Source of the DNA: a virus
Lineage: Duplodnaviria; Heunggongvirae; Uroviricota; Caudoviricetes
Strand: one strand, 5' to 3'
Virus record (IMG/VR): IMGVR_UViG_2531839195_000014
Length of the DNA stretch: 7,330 bases
The notes beneath the pieces were generated by a model. It was not told the DNA's origin and did not search any database. It saw nothing but the letters and a program-made list of their open reading frames with translations. Every line of letters starts with the position of its first letter. The first letter of the stretch is position 1. Shown one piece after another: positions 1-7,330 of the stretch. Position numbers and translations under genes: made by a program.

Positions 1-190
1 CGGCGGCCACAGCAGTAAGACTTCCTTCCTGGTATTGCTTACGCCAGAGAAATAACTGGCTGGCTGCTACACCATGTTGCCGGGCAACGAGGGAGACCGT
101 CATCCCCGGTTCAAAGCTCTGCTGAACAATTGCGATCTTTTCCTGTGTGGTACGCCGTCTGCGTTTCTCCGGCCCTAAGACATCAATCAT
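1..190 (-). CDS. insC: IS2 OrfA (InsC) N-terminal 63 codons, partial (C-terminus outside window)
   Basis: Minus-strand translation from ATG (rc of 188-190) gives [63 protein letters not shown], matching the IS2 InsC N-terminus as I remember it. Frame is open to the window edge. Confidence 0.8.
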
Positions 191-281
191 CTGTTCTCCA
201 ATGACTAGTCTAAAAACTAGTATTAAGACTATCACTTAAATAAGTGATACTGGTTGTCTGGAGATTCAGGGGGCCAGTCTA
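1..281 (-). mobile_element. IS2 (IS3 family) left-end fragment; element continues beyond the window start
   Basis: Reverse complement of 251-281 reads TAGACTGGCCCCCTGAATCTCCAGACAACC, which I recognise as the IS2 terminal inverted repeat; the IS2 orfA start lies about 90 bp inside. The outer boundary at 281/282 is set by the terminal TAGACT. Confidence 0.85.
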
Positions 282-737
282 CTCAGCATTATATAGTTCT
301 ACTCTGGCGAGATACGTTGGCATATTCATTTCCTTACTGGTTGTGTGAGAACTTCAGTAAAGATACCACCAAAGCCCGGAAGTGGTGAAATAAAACCGGG
401 CACAACACGAAGGCGCATTTCCGGTATCCATAAAGAGTCGGTCTTGTCTGTGAAATTTAAATGGTGGGAGTGCGCTTCCGGTTGTAAATAACGACATTGC
501 TGTGTGAAGTACCAGTTGGCGGCATCGGTTTAATTGCTGGCTGATGTCCGCCCTTTTTAAAGTGAATTTTGTGATGCGGTGAATGCGGCTATGCGCACGC
601 GGCACAGTTAAAAGTCATGTTAGTCCTTATTGGTTTGGGTGGGAAAGCCAACTGTAATTGTTAACTGGTTAACGTCACCTGGAGGCACCAGGCACCGCAT
701 CAACAAAGTTCACTTCGGTGATGAAAGGAAAGAGAAA

Positions 738-938
738 ATGTTGAATGTAGCTATTGAAAACCAGAACGGGTGGAATTATAGTGCACCTGCACCTCATAAA
801 ACGGGTGCCGGGATTGCTACCCCGACGATGACTACTGCGCATAACCGCGCTCAGGCGGTTTTTTATGCGTCAAGCACAGCCACATTCAGATTATGGTGGG
901 GCGTGCAGGGCAGCCGCAAGGCTGGCCGGTTTCGGTAG
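738..938 (+). CDS. small hypothetical ORF (66 aa), coding status uncertain
   Basis: ATG at 738 preceded by AAGGAAAG; same frame as the listed 630-938 ORF, which uses a TTG start. No recognisable motif. Its 3' end overlaps, in another frame, an open stretch leading into the Rha gene. Confidence 0.25.
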   Translation: MLNVAIENQNGWNYSAPAPHKTGAGIATPTMTTAHNRAQAVFYASSTATFRLWWGVQGSRKAGRFR

Positions 939-1030
939 TCACCGGTTGTAGCAACCCTGTGCGTCTCACCACCCATGAGATTGCTACCTCTGGTGGTGAG
1001 TCATTTAAACTGACTATCGAGGCTGCCATC

Positions 1031-1585
1031 ATGGCTACTATCCTTACCCTTTCTCACCCTGACGCAACCATCGAAAATGGTCGCGCTGTCACTACGTCTG
1101 TTGCGGTTGCGGAGTTCTTCCGGAAAATGCACAAAAACGTTATTCAGAAGATCGAAACTCTCGAATGCTCGCCGGAGTTTAACCGGCTTAATTTTAAGCC
1201 CGTCACCTATACCGACGCCAAAGGCGAAAAACGCCCAATGTACCAAATCACCAAAAACGGCTTCGTTTTCCTGGTGATGGGCTTCACTGGCAAAAAAGCC
1301 GCCGCATTCAAGGAAGCCTACATTGCTGAGTTCGACCGCATGGAGGCCGAACTGCGCCAGAATAACACCCCACCTGCAGACAAGATGATTCCGGGTGATG
1401 GTCGCACTCTGGTTGTTCACTTCGACAAATTCGGCAATGTCGAATTCACCGAAACCGTTCCTGATGGCGCACTGGTCTGTACCCTGGAGACTTTCCGGTT
1501 TTATCTGGAAAAACAGGGATGGACTCTTGTTAACCGGGGCGCAATTAAAAATATGACTGTGGAACAATTACTTTCTTTAAAATAA
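1031..1585 (+). CDS. Rha-family phage regulatory protein (antirepressor-like), 184 aa from ATG 1031
   Basis: Protein MATILTLSHPDATIENGRAVTTSVAVAEFFRKMHKNVIQKIETLECSPEFNRLNFKPVTYTDAKGEKRPMYQITKNGFVFLVMGFTGKKAAAFKEAYIAEFDRMEAELRQ has the hallmark Rha-domain pattern (TTS..VAE.F.K.H.NV, LNF, PMY..TK.GF..LVMG.TGKKA..FK.AYI..F..ME) recalled from memory. GAGG lies 9 nt upstream of ATG 1031. The frame is also open from ATG 893, which has no RBS, so the start is uncertain. Confidence 0.75.
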   Translation: MATILTLSHPDATIENGRAVTTSVAVAEFFRKMHKNVIQKIETLECSPEFNRLNFKPVTYTDAKGEKRPMYQITKNGFVFLVMGFTGKKAAAFKEAYIAEFDRMEAELRQNNTPPADKMIPGDGRTLVVHFDKFGNVEFTETVPDGALVCTLETFRFYLEKQGWTLVNRGAIKNMTVEQLLSLK

Positions 1586-1956
1586 AAATGGAGCTACGGA
1601 TATGAACCCTATGCTTGATTATTGTTTTACCTCTGCACCTCAGCAGACCATAACACACACCGGAATCAAAAATTTGTTATGGATAATCAAAAAAACCTCC
1701 AGTAGAAAGGTGATCCCGATTTAATTCCCTGTGCTTATGGCCTGTGTGACAGACAAGTAAGCCCTGATAAGGCTTACACTGCTGAACTTATTTACATGCA
1801 CGGAACCATGATGAGGAAAAAGAAACGCAAATATTGTAGTGAAATCTGCGCCGAAAAAGACCAGATGGCACACGAACTTTAATTAACTGACTATTCGAAA
1901 CTGAATTTATGCCAGCAATGGCAGGGATTCGCTCAACCTTAATTAAGGAGAAAAAC

Positions 1957-2033
1957 ATGAACACCAATTATGAAGCCACTGTTGCAACTACTGATAACAT
2001 TGTTCACGAGGTTTACCTGGAAGGAAAGCATAT
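1957..2033 (+). pseudogene. 5' fragment (first 25 codons) of an 81-codon gene of unknown function, interrupted by IS600-like copy 1
   Basis: Strong RBS AAGGAG (1945-1950), 6-nt spacer, ATG 1957; reads MNTNYEATVATTDNIVHEVYLEGKH and then runs into the IS terminus at 2034. The in-frame continuation is found on the minus strand at 4194-4023. Confidence 0.6.
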
Positions 2034-2097
2034 TGAGGTAGCCTGAGTTTAACGGACACTCCTTCCTGAAATAGAATGGCATCAGAAGGAGCTAATA

Positions 2098-2385
2098 ATG
2101 AGCAGAAAAACCCAACGTTACTCTAAAGAGTTCAAAGCCGAAGCTGTCAGAACGGTTCTTGAAAATCAACTTTCGATCAGTGAAGGCGCTTCCCGATTAT
2201 CCCTTCCTGAAGGCACTTTAGGACAATGGGTTACCGCCGCCAGAAAAGGGCTCGGTACTCCTGGTTCCCGCACGCTGGCTGAACTGGAATCTGAAATTCT
2301 GCAACTGCGTAAGGCGTTAAATGAAGCTCGCCTTGAGCGCGATATATTAAAAAAGCAACAGCGTATTTTGCACAGGAGTCGCTGA
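2098..2385 (+). CDS. IS600-like OrfA (helix-turn-helix transposase subunit), 95 aa
   Basis: Product MSRKTQRYSKEFKAEAVRTVLENQLSISEGASRLSLPEGTLGQWVTAARKG... then a leucine-zipper-like ILQLRKALNEARLERDILKK; RBS GGAG upstream. I recognise this as IS600 ORF1-like. Confidence 0.85.
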   Translation: MSRKTQRYSKEFKAEAVRTVLENQLSISEGASRLSLPEGTLGQWVTAARKGLGTPGSRTLAELESEILQLRKALNEARLERDILKKQQRILHRSR

Positions 2386-2434
2386 AAAATACGCGTTAAT
2401 CGAACAATGGCGACAACAATTTCCCATTGAAGCG

Positions 2435-3226
2435 ATGTGTCAGGTATTTGGTGTATCCAGGAGCGGTTATTACAACTGGGTACAGCATGAACCCTCAGAC
2501 AGAAAACAAAGTGATGAGCGGCTAAAACTGGAGATTAAGGTGGCACATATCCGCACTCGCGAAACATATGGAACCCGGCGGCTCCAGACGGAGCTGGCAG
2601 AGAATGGCATCATCGTTGGTCGTGACCGACTGGCACGTCTTCGTAAGGAGCTGAGGCTACGCTGTAAGCAGAAACGCAAGTTCAGAGCGACTACGAACCC
2701 GAACCACAATCTGCCAGTTGCGCCAAATCTGCTGAACCAGACGTTCGCTCCTACAGCACCAAATCAGGTCTGGGTGGCGGACCTGACGTATGTTGCTGGC
2801 ATCAAAGATGTTTATACGTGCGAAATTGTCGGCTACGCCATGGGAGAGCGCATGACAAAAGAGCTGACAGGTAAAGCCCTGTTTATGGCGCTCAGGAGCC
2901 AGCGCCCACCTGCCGGGCTAATCCACCACTCTGATCGAGGTTCACAGTACTGCGCATACGATTACCGGGTCATACAGGAGCAGTCTGGTCTGAAAACATC
3001 AATGTCGCGTAAAGGTAACTGTTACGACAACGCTCCGATGGAAAGCTTCTGGGGAACGCTGAAAAATGAGAGCCTGAGCCACTATCGTTTTAATAACCGG
3101 GATGAAGCCATCTCAGTAATACGGGAATACATTGAGATTTTCTACAATCGTCAGCGTCGTCACTCTCGTCTGGGGAATATCTCCCCGGCAGCCTTCAGGG
3201 AAAAATATCATCAGATAGCTGCTTAA
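2435..3226 (+). CDS. IS600-like OrfB (DDE transposase catalytic domain), carrying a 27-bp in-frame deletion
   Basis: ATG-initiated ORF; the frame is open from 2351 and is +1 relative to orfA. Contains WVADLTYV...HHSDRGSQY...NAPMESFWGTLKNE, typical of IS3-family DDE/RNase H fold transposases. Lacks the 9 codons TQEGWLYLA that are present in copies 2 and 3. Confidence 0.8.
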   Translation: MCQVFGVSRSGYYNWVQHEPSDRKQSDERLKLEIKVAHIRTRETYGTRRLQTELAENGIIVGRDRLARLRKELRLRCKQKRKFRATTNPNHNLPVAPNLLNQTFAPTAPNQVWVADLTYVAGIKDVYTCEIVGYAMGERMTKELTGKALFMALRSQRPPAGLIHHSDRGSQYCAYDYRVIQEQSGLKTSMSRKGNCYDNAPMESFWGTLKNESLSHYRFNNRDEAISVIREYIEIFYNRQRRHSRLGNISPAAFREKYHQIAA

Positions 3227-3250
3227 AAAAAGAACAAATGGTAGTGTCCG

Positions 3251-3895
3251 CTATTGCCAGTACACCTCAGCCTTAATTGCATCAGTCAGGCGGAGCAGGG
3301 CGGCATTATCCAGAGTTGTCGGTTCTGCCATGCCGCGTATGGCCAACAGCAGATTCTGGACATAGCTGTTTTCCTGATCCATCTCAAGAGCAGTAATGTG
3401 TTTGCGTTGTTCACGGGTGGCATGATGCAGGTATTTCAGATCCCCGGCAGCATACGTAAAAATGTGCAGAAGACGCTGTGTGAACCGCAAAGTGGCTACA
3501 GAGACTTCGCAATCCTGGCAATCCTCGTGGGCGTCTGCCTGCGCGTTTTCTTCCTGGCCTCCCGCCAGTTCTTTGGTTTCTTGAGCATTATCCTGGTGGT
3601 GAACGTCGTCTGGCGCTGCTCCCGGTTTTAGTTCCCATGTCATGGAGTCTTTGCTGAGTTGATAGCGTTCACTCCAGGTAAAATCGATCTCACCTTCAGG
3701 GGGAAGGTCATTAACGACAGGAAAATTTGTGGCAACAGCTTTAAAATAGTTGCTCAGTTTTTTACCTGACTTAACGAGCAGATAGTCCAGAGTGGTGCTG
3801 GTCGATTCAAAATCGTCGCTTGCCCACAGGACGACGTCAGGTTCACCGGATGATTTTTTCGCTTTCCGTAACAGGAAGAGTGGTTTTGTGCTCAT
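3251..3895 (-). CDS. hypothetical protein, about 208 native codons, 3'-truncated and fused to 5 IS-derived codons plus stop
   Basis: Long minus-strand ORF; ATG at rc 3893-3895 with GAGG 9 nt upstream (the listed ORF starts at TTG 3910). The protein has an N-terminal region, an acidic D/E/Q-rich linker ([32 protein letters not shown]) and a C-terminal region. The frame runs through the IS copy 1 junction at 3269/3270, so the last codons (EVYWQ, stop at 3251-3253) are IS sequence. I do not recognise a family. Confidence 0.5.
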
Positions 3896-3964
3896 TGTTT
3901 TTAACCTCAACTCAGATTAAAATTACTGCGAGTGATGAATAAATGTCCCAGGTTCTTCACTCAG

Positions 3965-3995
3965 GCCTGCACACTGTGCAGGCTTTCTTTTTTTC
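3965..3995 (+). terminator. Rho-independent terminator-like hairpin (plus strand)
   Basis: GCCTGCAC (3965-3972), loop ACT, GTGCAGGC (3976-3983), followed by TTTCTTTTTTTC (3984-3995). On the minus strand the stem is followed by no U-tract, so it is directional. Confidence 0.5.
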
Positions 3996-4022
3996 AGATT
4001 TCACCTTTTAATTTCATTGCAA

Positions 4023-4194
4023 TCAGATTTGCCAGAAATTCGGCTTTTTTTCTGCGGGCAGATTATTTCCGATGTAAACTAGGCACATTTTTGTGGCACC
4101 TTCAACAAGAGTTTTAAAGTTTCCTGATAGACCGTCGATATCAACTACAGTGAATGGGGTTTCTTTATTTTCTGTTTTAATTACGTAGCCAATA
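4023..4194 (-). pseudogene. 3' fragment (last 56 codons plus stop) of the 81-codon gene begun at 1957-2033
   Basis: Minus-strand frame reads (H)IGYVIKTENKETPFTVVDIDGLSGNFKTLVEGATKMCLVYIGNNLPAEKKPNFWQI then stop. Joining 1957-2033 to rc(4194-4023) restores an uninterrupted frame (…AAG CAT ATT GGC TAC…) with a shared TAT triplet at both junctions. The listed ORF 4023-4226 owes its first 11 codons to the IS terminus. Confidence 0.6.
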
Positions 4195-4237
4195 TGAGGT
4201 GTACTGGCAATAGCGGACACTACCATTTGTTCTTTTT

Positions 4238-5055
4238 TTAAGCAGCCATCTGATGATATTTTTCCCTGAAGGCTGCCGGGGAGATATTCCCCAGACGAGA
4301 GTGACGACGCTGACGATTGTAGAAAATCTCAATGTATTCCCGTATTACTGAGATGGCTTCATCCCGGTTATTAAAACGATAGTGGCTCAGGCTCTCATTT
4401 TTCAGCGTTCCCCAGAAGCTTTCCATCGGAGCGTTGTCGTAACAGTTACCTTTACGCGACATTGATGTTTTCAGACCAGACTGCTCCTGTATGACCCGGT
4501 AATCGTATGCGCAGTACTGTGAACCTCGATCAGAGTGGTGGATTAGCCCGGCAGGTGGGCGCTGGCTCCTGAGCGCCTTAAACAGGGCTTTACCTGTCAG
4601 CTCTTTTGTCATGCGCTCTCCCATGGCGTAGCCGACAATTTCGCACGTATAAACATCTTTGATGCCAGCGAGGTACAACCATCCCTCCTGTGTGGCAACA
4701 TACGTCAGGTCCGCCACCCAGACCTGATTTGGTGCTGTAGGAGCGAACGTCTGGTTCAGCAGATTTGGCGCAACTGGCAGATTGTGGTTCGGGTTCGTAG
4801 TCGCTCTGAACTTGCGTTTCTGCTTACAGCGTAGCCTCAGCTCCTTACGAAGACGTGCCAGTCGGTCACGACCAACGATGATGCCATTCTCTGCCAGCTC
4901 CGTCTGGAGCCGCCGGGTTCCATATGTTTCGCGAGTGCGGATATGTGCCACCTTAATCTCCAGTTTTAGCCGCTCATCACTTGTTTTCTGTCTGAGGGTT
5001 CATGCTGTACCCAGTTGTAATAACCGCTCCTGGATACACCAAATACCTGACACAT
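4238..5055 (-). pseudogene. IS600-like orfB, copy 2, frameshifted by a 1-bp deletion
   Basis: Copy 2 has TT at 4981-4982 where copies 1 and 3 have TTT (sense strand AAA to AA). Sense reading becomes ...RKQVMSG-stop shortly after the orfB start; the downstream catalytic region (4238-4951) is intact but out of frame. Confidence 0.8.
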
Positions 5056-5104
5056 CGCTTCAATGGGAAATTGTTGTCGCCATTGTTCGATTAACGCGTA
5101 TTTT

Positions 5105-5392
5105 TCAGCGACTCCTGTGCAAAATACGCTGTTGCTTTTTTAATATATCGCGCTCAAGGCGAGCTTCATTTAACGCCTTACGCAGTTGCAGAATTTCAGA
5201 TTCCAGTTCAGCCACCGTGCGGGAACCAGGAGTACCGAGCCCTTTTCTGGCGGCGGTAACCCATTGTCCTAAAGTGCCTTCAGGAAGGGATAATCGGGAA
5301 GCGCCTTCACTGATCGAAAGTTGATTTTCAAGAACCGTTCTGACAGCTTCGGCTTTGAACTCTTTAGAGTAACGTTGGGTTTTTCTGCTCAT
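5105..5392 (-). CDS. IS600-like OrfA, copy 2 (95 aa)
   Basis: Identical to copy 1 OrfA except L60V (…GSRTVAELE…). Confidence 0.85.
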   Translation of the reverse strand: MSRKTQRYSKEFKAEAVRTVLENQLSISEGASRLSLPEGTLGQWVTAARKGLGTPGSRTVAELESEILQLRKALNEARLERDILKKQQRILHRSR

Positions 5393-5456
5393 TATTAGCT
5401 CCTTCTGATGCCATTCTATTTCAGGAAGGAGTGTCCGTTAAACTCAGGCTACCTCA

Positions 5457-6228
5457 ATTCCCCAGACGAGAGTGACGACGCTGACGATTGTAGAAAATCT
5501 CAATGTATTCCCGTATTACTGAGATGGCTTCATCCCGGTTATTAAAACGATAGTGGCTCAGGCTCTCATTTTTCAGCGTTCCCCAGAAGCTTTCCATCGG
5601 AGCGTTGTCGTAACAGTTACCTTTACGCGACATTGATGTTTTCAGACCAGACTGCTCCTGTATGACCCGGTAATCGTATGCGCAGTACTGTGAACCTCGA
5701 TCAGAGTGGTGGATTAGCCCGGCAGGTGGGCGCTGGCTCCTGAGCGCCATAAACAGGGCTTTACCTGTCAGCTCTTTTGTCATGCGCTCTCCCATGGCGT
5801 AGCCGACAATTTCGCACGTATAAACATCTTTGATGCCAGCGAGGTACAACCATCCCTCCTGTGTGGCAACATACGTCAGGTCCGCCACCCAGACCTGATT
5901 TGGTGCTGTAGGAGCGAACGTCTGGTTCAGCAGATTTGGCGCAACTGGCAGATTGTGTGTTCGGGTTCGTAGTCGCTCTGAACTTGCGTTTCTGCTTACA
6001 GCGTAGCCTCAGCTCCTTACGAAGACGTGCCAGTCGGTCACGACCAACGATGATGCCATTCTCTGCCAGCTCCGTCTGGAGCCGCCGGGTTCCATATGTT
6101 TCGCGAGTGCGGATATGTGCCACCTTAATCTCCAGTTTTAACCGCTCATCACTTTGTTTTCTGTCTGAGGGTTCATGCTGTACCCAGTTGTAATAACCGC
6201 TCCTGGATACACCAAATACCTGACACAT
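5457..6228 (-). pseudogene. IS600-like orfB, copy 3, 1-bp insertion frameshift and 3' truncation
   Basis: Extra T at 5958 (GATTGTGTGTTCGGG versus GATTGTGGTTCGGG in copy 2) shifts the frame after ...RATTNPN. The 3' end is cut at 5457, and the listed ORF 5454-5888 terminates in copy 2 IRL sequence. Confidence 0.8.
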
Positions 6229-6277
6229 CGCTTCAATGGGAAATTGTTGTCGCCATTGTTCGATTAACGCGTATTTT

Positions 6278-6565
6278 TCAGCGACTCCTGTGCAAAATAC
6301 GCTGTTGCTTTTTTAATATATCGCGCTCAAGGCGAGCTTCATTTAACGCCTTACGCAGTTGCAGAATTTCAGATTCCAGTTCAGCCACCGTGCGGGAACC
6401 AGGAGTACCGAGCCCTTTTCTGGCGGCGGTAACCCATTGTCCTAAAGTGCCTTCAGGAAGGGATAATCGGGAAGCGCCTTCACTGATCGAAAGTTGATTT
6501 TCAAGAACCGTTCTGACAGCTTCGGCTTTGAACTCTTTAGAGTAACGTTGGGTTTTTCTGCTCAT
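6278..6565 (-). CDS. IS600-like OrfA, copy 3 (95 aa)
   Basis: Protein identical to copy 2 OrfA. Confidence 0.85.
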   Translation of the reverse strand: MSRKTQRYSKEFKAEAVRTVLENQLSISEGASRLSLPEGTLGQWVTAARKGLGTPGSRTVAELESEILQLRKALNEARLERDILKKQQRILHRSR

Positions 6566-6869
6566 TATTAGCTCCTTCTGATGCCATTTTATTTCAGGAA
6601 GGAGTGTCCGTTAAACTCAGGCTACCTCACATGTCTCTGGCGCAATGCCCGGGCTTTTTATTCGCACATCGTGAGGAATGCACCGTGGAAATTAAAAAAT
6701 CATTAATCCCCGTTATACCGAAAGTGGCGCAGTAGACTGTGACGTTTTTTTTGACGACAGGGACCAGGCAGTCCCCTACACAGCCACCGCTGATGATGTC
6801 GCACCGACGGGTCAGCGAATCTGGCAGGAACTGCAAAGTGGCAAATGGGGTGAGATAGCCCCATTCACT

Positions 6870-7247
6870 GTGACACCAGAAATGCTGGAAGCGGCCAGAG
6901 AGGCCAGACGTCAGGAAATTGAAGCATGGCGCACAGAACAGGAGGCGAAGCCGTTCACGTTTGAATGGAACGGTCGTATCTGGAATGCTGGCCCCAACTC
7001 ACTGGGCCGCCTTTATCCGGTGGTAATGGCTGCGAAATCCGACATTGTACGGGACGTGATGACGTGGGGTGATGCCGATAATCAGCAGGTGAAACTGTCG
7101 ATGCCGGAACTGGAAGAACTGGCGGCAGCAATGGTGCAGGCGCAGGTCGATCGCAACGATGAGATTTATCGCCGTCAGCGTGAAATGAAAGAGGAGCTGA
7201 GCGGTCTGGATGATTTGGCTTCAATTCGGGCGTTTGACGTTGAGTAA
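6870..7247 (+). CDS. phage tail-associated DUF4376-like protein (tail-fibre-assembly-like region); 5' end disrupted or uncertain
   Basis: Product …EMLEAAREARRQEIEAWRTEQEA…MTWGDADNQQVKLSMPELEELAAAMVQAQVDRNDEIYRRQREMKEELSGLDDLASIRAFDVE resembles, from memory, the DUF4376 family found beside prophage tail-fibre genes. The frame is open upstream to 6696 with coding-like sequence but no start codon or RBS before GTG 6870 / ATG 6882. The stop overlaps the next start (TAATG). Confidence 0.45.
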   Translation: MTPEMLEAAREARRQEIEAWRTEQEAKPFTFEWNGRIWNAGPNSLGRLYPVVMAAKSDIVRDVMTWGDADNQQVKLSMPELEELAAAMVQAQVDRNDEIYRRQREMKEELSGLDDLASIRAFDVE

Positions 7248-7330
7248 TGAATAAGCCGCAACTGGCGGAATCACAGAAGACCGCTTTGCTTACCGAAGCG
7301 GAGTCTGTCATCCGGCCGCCGGGGCGTGCT
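7247..7330 (+). CDS. hypothetical protein, N-terminal 28 codons, partial (continues beyond the window)
   Basis: ATG 7247 overlaps the upstream stop codon (TAATG), suggesting translational coupling; reads MNKPQLAESQKTALLTEAESVIRPPGRA to the window edge. Not in the ORF track because of the window end. Confidence 0.3.
   Translation, partial: MNKPQLAESQKTALLTEAESVIRPPGRA

Follow-up and report, generated by a model that had tools for sequence, protein, structure and literature searches.

A head-to-tail IS600 pair in a Shigella flexneri draft contig is probably an assembly artefact around a genuine junction from ygbK

The window analyzed here (the whole stretch of DNA under study, 7,330 bp) is the entire contig AKMZ01000023.1 of draft assembly GCA_000268025.1 from S. 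flexneri K-404, a strain for which a literature search found nothing. It consists of prophage DNA broken up by three copies of an insertion sequence (IS), with the end of another element at its left border (Table 1). We take this bordering element to be IS2 from its terminal sequence; an ORF with an HTH_Tnp_1 domain lies at this contig end, where sibling genomes hold ORFs of 121 and 301 aa. The segment between copies 1 and 2 also holds the 3' part of the hypothetical gene and, when compared with FDAARGOS_944, runs in the orientation opposite to that of 282-2033. The contig ends about 97 bp past the 3' end of the ipaH gene.

Table 1. Features of the 7,330-bp window. A slash marks a joint; IS positions count from the left end (IRL) of the element.
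Feature	Position	Strand	Basis or remark
End of an IS3-family element (IS2-like), cut by the contig end	1..281	-	Homology to the prophage of locus L001 begins at 282
Prophage segment: Rha-family regulator, YdaE, 5' part of a small hypothetical gene	282..2033	+	Collinear with EIEC FDAARGOS_944 (L001)
TAT, one copy of a 3-bp target duplication, closing the segment 282..2033	2031-2033		
IS600 copy 1	2034..3269	+	Repeat scan, alignment of copies
Inverted segment between copies 1 and 2	3270..4194	-	99.5% identity, hypothetical-gene/RecE region of FDAARGOS_944
RecE N-terminal fragment, reading through into the IS	3251-3895		Within the inverted segment
IS600 copy 2, complete from IRR to IRL, 1,262 bp	4195..5456	-	Alignment of three copies
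IS600 copy 3, IS positions 1-1173 only	5457..6629	-	Alignment of three copies
Junction GGGGAAT/TGAGGTAGCC (IS strand)	5447..5466	-	Same as the left junction of the ygbK nested insertion
End of tail-fibre gene and DUF4376 gene, ipaH-carrying prophage	6630..7330	+	Sibling comparison

All three copies are at least 99% identical, indels aside, to DNA annotated as IS600, and the RefSeq label on the matching DNA (99-100% identity) is 'IS3-like element IS600 family transposase'. The Pfam families recorded for the genes of the contig are HTH_Tnp_1, HTH_21, rve, rve_3 and rve_2, and the element has a two-ORF layout in which OrfA carries the HTH domain and OrfB the DDE (rve) domain. The ends, as seen in copies 1 and 2, are imperfect inverted repeats with TG...CA tips, the left one (IRL) beginning TGAGGTAGCC... 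and the right one (IRR) finishing in ...GTACACCTCA. Target duplications of 3 bp were found for IS600 in two cases described below, TAT (restored by flipping a segment) and AAT (at a nested insertion). By sequence comparison the element is IS600, of the IS3 family.

A sequence-only reading of the window had described copies 2 and 3 as a full element joined head to tail to a truncated one, and a repeat scan together with the alignment of the three copies confirms that description. Copy 2 ends in its IRL tip (TGAGGT..., last base 5456), which abuts IS position 1173 of copy 3 directly, and the joint reads ...CTGGGGAAT/TGAGGTAGCC... on the IS strand. The alignment likewise bears out that copy 3 is truncated by 91 bp at its IRR end. 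The flanks are also as had been claimed: the outer ones, ATA at 4192-4194 (reverse complement TAT) versus CAT at 6630-6632, are unmatched and form no 3-bp duplication, while the inverted segment has GCC at 3270-3272 at its other end and copy 1 is preceded by TAT. Copies 2 and 3 are ∼99.6% identical over 1,173 bp, far above chance, with five differences. No record of the 144-aa ORF that spans the junction was found in a protein look-up.

Nine large or complete S. flexneri chromosomes, 2457T included, are collinear with the window and proved informative in the sibling comparison that the earlier reading had called for. At this locus the structure is absent from 9/9 of them, and one IS600 of 1,264 bp stands in place of the pair, flanked by CAT and ATA as in the window. 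The reverse complement of the window aligns to a sibling locus in two blocks (1-1874 to 7735-9609, and 1875-7330 to 8437-13898), from which it follows that the window has an excess of exactly 1,173 bases. The tandem arrangement was seen in no other assembly, and an intermediate in which a nested insertion retains its remainder was not seen at the window's locus in any genome examined.

The same junction, GGGGAAT/TGAGGTAGCC, is found elsewhere on the chromosome. It is present at ygbK in five complete chromosomes (CP034931, LR213455, CP012735, CP044152 and CP001383) and in two drafts (AFGZ01000054 and AWOX01000109), and every junction whose genomic context was resolved, among the junction-bearing loci L024, L028, L030, L031, L034, L035, L036, L038 and L039, leads to ygbK. 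In the complete chromosomes ygbK carries IS positions 1-1173, 1-1264 and 1171-1264 in succession, with AAT as the duplication. This is a full nested insertion (L028, L030, L031, L034 and L035), in which a second junction, IRR/AATATCTCC, and a 94-bp remainder accompany the first. The second junction reads ACACCTCA/AATATCTCC, also written ACACCTCA/AATATCTCCCC. In the window only the first junction is present, and both the second junction and the 94-bp remainder are absent.

At ygbK, for example in strain 2002017 (CP001383, SFxv_3022/3023), the left junction is identical to that of the window and the copies have the same orientation. The two loci differ in what follows the inner copy, as ygbK continues into AAT and then the outer copy's final 91 bp whereas the window passes directly into its local ATA flank, and the flanks of the pair are those of a different locus. 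One chromosome, LR213455, resolves both sites and is nested at ygbK (L030) with a single IS600 at the window's locus (L005). The claim that the joint is no product of simple insertion is thus borne out, since it is the left end of an IS600-in-IS600 insertion. Insertion of one copy into another, which had been proposed, did make the junction, as the AAT duplication in complete genomes attests, but the intact nested structure sits at ygbK instead of in the window. The "missing" 91-bp IRR segment is located there as well, after AAT.

Broader searches returned little. A 160-bp junction query gave only two-piece, non-contiguous matches in E. coli complete genomes and PLSDB plasmids, the exact 30-nt junction had no match in GTDB species representatives, and the exact 24-nt junction had none in JGI metagenomes or IMG/VR. 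The IS-truncated form of ygbK was not returned by a homology search with the ygbK fragment but was recovered by exact look-up.

The earlier reading had tied the missing target duplication to the tandem. This link does not hold, as the single copy in siblings carries identical CAT/ATA flanks. When 3270-4194 is flipped a TAT...TAT duplication is restored, and window positions 2004-2033 joined to the reverse complement of 4165-4191 give an exact 57-nt match to the empty site in the uninterrupted prophage (L001). Judged from this sequence match, TAT and ATA are the two members of a true duplication that an IS600-IS600 inversion has separated. An IS600 inserted in the hypothetical gene with duplication of TAT; its later recombination with an oppositely oriented IS600, which lay between recE and the tail-fibre/DUF4376 region, turned 3270-4194 around and exchanged the flanks. 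An older inversion in this prophage, again mediated by IS600, would be the source of the CAT/GCC pair of that partner copy. The flank mismatch is real and ancestral and is separate from the tandem; inversions common to the sibling S. flexneri genomes examined explain the missing duplications.

The sole witness of the tandem is a short-read draft contig, and its error profile bears on how the copies are to be read. Relative to the closest complete relatives, most differences in the window are 1-nt undercalls in runs of at least six identical bases, and these make up all of its indels but two. They affect both unique DNA (865, 1696, 3903 and 6700) and the IS copies (the A7 run in each of the three). 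Such a profile is the typical signature of flow-type reads, whose length falls short of a 1.26-kb repeat. Elsewhere in the project, long contigs do hold correctly placed IS copies, which indicates that the pipeline did not always fail at repeats.

Set against reference IS600, all three window copies appear defective, with A6 for A7, a 27-bp deletion and single-base indels. The slippery run of the -1 frameshift signal that would join OrfA and OrfB is, in the sibling copies compared, A7-G followed by a 34-nt hairpin; five sibling copies were missed by a scan for this motif because of a nearby substitution, and the extra A is visible in their alignment. All three window copies read A6, which would break the frameshift signal, in a contig that undercalls other long homopolymers too. 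A look-up of the 95-aa OrfA of copy 1 gave matches at unrelated IS600 loci in other drafts and plasmids, showing that A6 variants exist elsewhere, and a reconstructed fused transposase of 370 aa is absent from the protein collection. Copy 1 combines its A6 run with an in-frame deletion of 27 bp (IS positions 763-789) that is shared with sibling loci L003, L007 and L010. For the most part the defects look like sequencing errors.

Single-base markers further distinguish the two copies of the pair. Copy 2, at 1,262 bp compared with 1,264 bp for IS600 in complete sibling genomes, has two private changes (an A missing at IS position 476 and an A at 881), and copy 3 has one (an extra A at 672). Near their respective flanks, copy 3 carries A41 and T490, alleles of the single resident copy in siblings, and copy 2 carries G1212, the allele of the resident sibling copy. 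The interior of copy 2 carries G41, C307, C490 and G621, which are common to most of the IS600 copies compared, and lacks both the markers of the ygbK inner copy (A307, A621 and A1213) and the resident T490. Common alleles are as expected if unanchored repeat reads filled the interior. The private changes of copies 2 and 3 are unlike a purely collapsed high-coverage consensus and imply either low-coverage read placement or real mutations.

How a junction at ygbK could come to stand in this contig is suggested by assembly graphs. The Logan-assembly contig L038 measures 1,203 bp, or 1,173 + 30, beginning 21 nt before the junction and ending at IS position 1173, and several further contigs also stop exactly at position 1173. 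These contigs show that in collapsed graphs the junction forms a 1,173-bp cycle or a branch point. The extra DNA of the window equals exactly one turn of that cycle. In the proposed sequence of events, IS600 transposed into a resident IS600 at ygbK, 91 bp from its IRR end, in many S. flexneri strains; once a short-read graph has collapsed all IS600 copies into one, the left junction (1173/1) closes the cycle. The K-404 assembler, on crossing the single IS600 between the DUF4376 gene and the hypothetical/RecE segment, would have circled once and written CAT, IS 1-1173, the junction, IS 1-1264 and ATA. This account supposes that K-404 itself carries the ygbK nested insertion and that its assembler took the loop, both of which we infer. 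With the junction found elsewhere in five complete genomes and two drafts, and an excess length equal to the cycle, we consider it likely that the tandem is an assembly artefact around a real junction borrowed from another chromosomal site. An assembly problem, which the sequence-only reading had itself named as the outcome that would undo it, is accordingly the explanation that we judge most likely.

The case resembles repeat-induced misassembly in that the excess equals the cycle period and in that a short-read draft alone shows the structure, against one copy in complete genomes. It differs in that the two copies are not identical, and their five differences indicate that reads were partly partitioned between them. 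A real tandem could have arisen if the ygbK junction was transferred to the resident IS600 by ectopic homologous recombination, through a gene conversion or two successive reciprocal crossovers, one exchange falling before the junction, within IS 1-1173, and the other beyond it, in the inner copy. Such an event would account exactly for the 1,173-bp excess, keep the flanks on both sides as they are and reproduce the ygbK junction, and the flanks and flank-proximal markers A41, T490 and G1212 do belong to the resident copy. IS-mediated rearrangement is documented in S. flexneri, with IS600 among the elements involved, and IS-mediated recombination is frequent in Shigella genomes, so that a real transfer of the junction is possible (PMC1550401). 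Copy 2 is nevertheless no simple mosaic, as its lack of ygbK A307 and A621 and of resident T490 would require extra events, and the nine single-copy siblings, the absence of the arrangement from every other assembly and the reliance on one short-read contig weigh further against this route, which we regard as unlikely.

An independent insertion of a second IS600 into the resident copy may instead have hit the site used at ygbK, with matching orientation, and the resulting 94-bp tandem direct repeat (1171-1264) would afterwards have been lost by slippage or recombination. The palindrome GGGGAAT/ATCTCCCC would then contain an insertion hot spot. Tandem repeats of 94 bp are readily lost, and the markers of copy 2 fit a donor with the alleles common to most IS600 copies. 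In S. sonnei a graph branch at IS position 1175, 2 bp from the joint, occurs in at least 20 samples and may point to a favoured site. Against this, the insertion would have to strike the same base and orientation among ∼2,500 possibilities and be followed by a precise deletion, and all context-resolved junctions lie at ygbK with no nested intermediate at the window's locus in any genome. We hold an independent second hit to be improbable, and give equally little credence to the idea that IS600 has a self-insertion hot spot lying 91 bp inside its IRR end, struck on separate occasions at ygbK and the DUF4376/RecE locus and, in S. sonnei, at a point 2 bp off. Aberrant one-ended transposition, whether by attack of the IRL 3'-OH on position 1173/1174 in a sister copy or by homologous recombination of a 1,173-bp autointegration circle into the resident copy, would account for a joint at the exact IRL tip, and by analogy with the IS911/IS3 mechanism the strand-transfer geometry of IS3-family copy-out transposition would give such a product. 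A normal two-ended insertion with AAT at ygbK, however, fully explains the joint, no data demand an aberrant event and the doubtful reliability of the contig would be unchanged, which makes this route very improbable. The suggestion that the end of a resident copy was targeted does not apply, as the insertion point lies 91 bp inside the element. The pair shares with the (IS)2 dimers and circle junctions of IS911, IS2, IS3 and IS150 the head-to-tail orientation of two copies and nothing else. IS3-family dimers abut IRR and IRL across about 3 bp, whereas in the window IRL abuts an internal position and IRR is absent. An active (IS)2 dimer of the IS3- or IS30-family kind, with abutted ends forming a junction promoter, is contradicted by the sequence, as the upstream copy lacks IRR and 91 bp and no IRR-spacer-IRL junction can form; we all but dismiss it, and the tandem dimer that had been suggested is likewise not applicable.

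Three smaller candidates were set aside. A pseudo-IRR at 1139-1170 that might serve as a surrogate end bears no resemblance to IRR by eye, a microhomology-mediated duplication does not suit a joint at the exact IS tip with no shared microhomology, and the S. sonnei contigs of 329/330 bp that encode the same 109-aa product are normal IS600 (positions 846-1175) and not the junction.

An ordinary nested insertion elsewhere, at ygbK, explains both the puzzling junction and the 91 bp that had seemed to be missing. The tandem itself is probably not real, and the underlying biology is ordinary. As a short contig made up mostly of repeat copies, the window illustrates why odd IS junctions in short, repeat-rich draft contigs call for comparison with finished genomes before anyone invokes unusual transposition chemistry. 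The finding carries little biological weight, as Shigella routinely shows IS600 copies, nested IS insertions and inversions mediated by IS elements.

By exact-protein look-up, the window is all of contig AKMZ01000023.1 (7,330 bp) from draft assembly GCA_000268025.1 of Shigella flexneri K-404, and it carries three copies of one insertion sequence. We identify the element as IS600 of the IS3 family; matching DNA is annotated as IS600-family transposase in RefSeq, the IS600 ORFs of the contig contain HTH_Tnp_1 and rve domains, and the termini are TG...CA. The left inverted-repeat (IRL) tip of copy 2 is fused directly to position 1173 of copy 3, with no spacer between, and on the IS strand the copy 3/copy 2 joint reads CTGGGGAAT/TGAGGTAGCC. 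Both the coordinates and the joint agree with the sequence-only reading, which had described a complete and a truncated IS in head-to-tail tandem, and the flanks are also as it gave them, with TAT and GCC on either side of copy 1 and with ATA beside copy 2 and CAT beside copy 3. A 34-nt hairpin, GCGTATTTT...AAAATACGC, lies at 2361-2394 and, on the other strand, at 5096-5129 and 6269-6302, in each case 6 nt after the IS600 slippery run; it is probably the structure that stimulates frameshifting, of the kind typical of the IS3 family.

IS600 copies in the window, with IS positions numbered on the 1,264-bp element
Feature	Window position	Strand	Extent	Basis
IS600 copy 1	2034-3269	plus		alignment of copies and repeat scan
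IS600 copy 2	4195-5456	minus	complete, IRR to IRL	alignment and repeat scan
IS600 copy 3	5457-6629	minus	IS positions 1-1173; the terminal 91 bp on the IRR side are missing	

The RecE fragment whose reading frame runs on into copy 1 (window 3251-3895, minus strand) served to look up sibling loci and retrieved the window's locus in S. flexneri chromosomes, 2457T among them. For nine of these the alignment could be carried across the IS copies, and all nine are collinear with the window and have one 1,264-bp IS600 in place of the pair. The reverse complement of window 1-1874 aligns to 7735-9609 of the sibling locus and that of 1875-7330 to 8437-13898; the excess in the window is therefore exactly 1,173 bp. 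The single sibling IS600 is flanked by CAT and ATA like the pair, and thus the missing target duplication predates the tandem and is independent of it. Copy 1 has a 27-bp in-frame deletion in OrfB (IS positions 763-789, window 2796/2797) that is shared by three large or complete S. flexneri sequences (L003, L007 and L010) and absent from six others, and is therefore a real lineage marker.

EIEC strain FDAARGOS_944 has the prophage in uninterrupted form, with genes in the order Rha, YdaE, hypothetical, RecE, and window 282-2033 and 3270-4194 match it in opposite orientations. Window 2004-2033 joined to the reverse complement of 4165-4191 is an exact 57-nt match to the empty site, indicating that IS600 inserted in the hypothetical gene with duplication of TAT and then recombined. 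The partner was an inverted IS600, and the exchange flipped 3270-4194 and swapped the flanks; of the partner flanks, GCC comes from recE and CAT from the tail-fibre/DUF4376 region adjoining ipaH. From the sibling gene order we infer an earlier IS600-mediated inversion in the same prophage. For S. flexneri, IS-mediated inversions are on record, some of them ascribed to IS600 (PMC1550401). With the inversion undone and the IS removed (1957-2033 plus the reverse complement of 4023-4191), the small hypothetical gene lying between ydaE and recE appears rejoined on manual reading; the annotation of FDAARGOS_944 gives this gene as frameshifted.

Contig AFGZ01000054, from a different S. flexneri draft, also encodes the 109-aa ORF ending at the junction; in that contig an IS600 is inserted in ygbK, near mutS, and the identical junction comes after it. 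Complete genomes searched with the ygbK fragment showed one of two states, a single IS600 (loci L027, L029, L032 and L033) or a nested one (L028, CP034931; L030, LR213455; L031, CP012735; L034, CP044152). The nested structure comprises IS positions 1-1173, 1-1264 and 1171-1264 in succession, with a 3-bp duplication AAT and an intact 94-bp remainder, and is a textbook insertion of IS600 into IS600. The "missing 91-bp IRR segment" that the sequence-only reading had proposed to seek beside CAT or GCC was thus located, at ygbK and with the AAT duplication. The same ygbK junction occurs in strain 2002017 (CP001383) and in draft AWOX01000109, and in LR213455 both loci are resolved, the ygbK one being nested and the window's (L005) having a lone IS600. 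All context-resolved junctions map to ygbK, the sole exception being the K-404 contig. The resident ygbK IS600 (L027 4222-5485) likewise has no matching duplication, being flanked by GCA on the left and AAC on the right, and it adjoins a Mu-like transposase gene; it is thus probably a recombinant copy too.

The left end of the K-404 contig falls inside another IS3-family element (window 1-281), which we take to be IS2-like, and the right end lies ~97 bp (7234-7330) past the multicopy ipaH gene. Despite such ends the contig crosses three IS600 copies, something a short-read contig does not usually do. Compared with the closest finished relatives, one-base undercalls in 6-8-nt homopolymers make up most differences and all indels but two. 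They occur in unique DNA at 865, 1696, 3903 and 6700, and A6 replaces A7 at the slippery run in all three IS600 copies (2349-2354, 5136-5141 and 6309-6314); these appear to be sequencing errors and not biological changes, and the undercall at 865 may account for a Rha ORF called shorter than in siblings. Short reads of the flow type leave this signature. They are too short to span a 1.26-kb IS, still less the 2.4-kb pair, and the tandem arrangement therefore depends on how the assembler resolved the repeats. At the contig end in draft AFGZ01000054, the inner IS600 (L024 8328-9193) is poor, with 98.4% identity and 5 gaps in 869 bp, an example of low-coverage read placement within the repeats of such drafts.

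We consider it likely that the tandem arose by mis-threading in assembly. With the IS600 copies collapsed, the joining of position 1173 to position 1 closes a 1,173-bp cycle, and the extra DNA in the window amounts to one turn of it. A Logan-assembly contig (L038) of 1,203 bp, that is 1,173 + 30, starts 21 nt before the junction and stops at IS position 1173, where several other short contigs also stop exactly. The marker alleles fit this reading. Beside the CAT flank copy 3 carries alleles A41 and T490 of the resident copy, the single IS600 of the siblings at this locus, and beside the ATA flank copy 2 carries the resident G1212. Inside copy 2 there are neither A307, A621 and A1213 of the inner ygbK copy nor the resident T490; its alleles there are those common to most IS600 copies, as would be expected had the middle been filled by unanchored repeat reads. 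Private changes nevertheless separate the pair, copy 2 lacking an A at 476 and having A881 and copy 3 having an extra A at 672, and these argue against mis-threading in that a deep collapsed consensus would not produce them. Mis-threading moreover presumes that K-404 carries the nested ygbK insertion, so there is room for a real origin of the tandem.

Among real origins, ectopic recombination (gene conversion or double crossover), by which the resident copy would have acquired the ygbK junction, is unlikely, as it needs extra events to fit the copy markers. More doubtful still is a second independent insertion at the same site, after which the 94-bp tandem repeat was lost; this requires a coincidence or a hot spot, and a weak hint of the latter comes from S. 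sonnei, where contigs from at least 20 samples break at IS position 1175, in the palindrome GGGGAATATCTCCCC. The break at 1175 suggests a further insertion, 2 bp away from the nested site of S. flexneri, and the palindrome is possibly an insertion hot spot. Aberrant one-ended transposition is very improbable, and an (IS)2 dimer is excluded by the lack of an IRR at the joint. Many short-read assemblies break IS600 at 1173 or 1175, inside this palindrome (L025, L026, L037, L040 and L041, the first two being S. sonnei contigs of 329/330 bp).

The sequence-only reading held that at least two events beyond simple insertion were needed; the tandem itself is confirmed as an observation, and that interpretation is supported in part. 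The tandem holds no new biology: even were it real, known routes acting on a known element would have produced it, as a rearrangement private to the strain.
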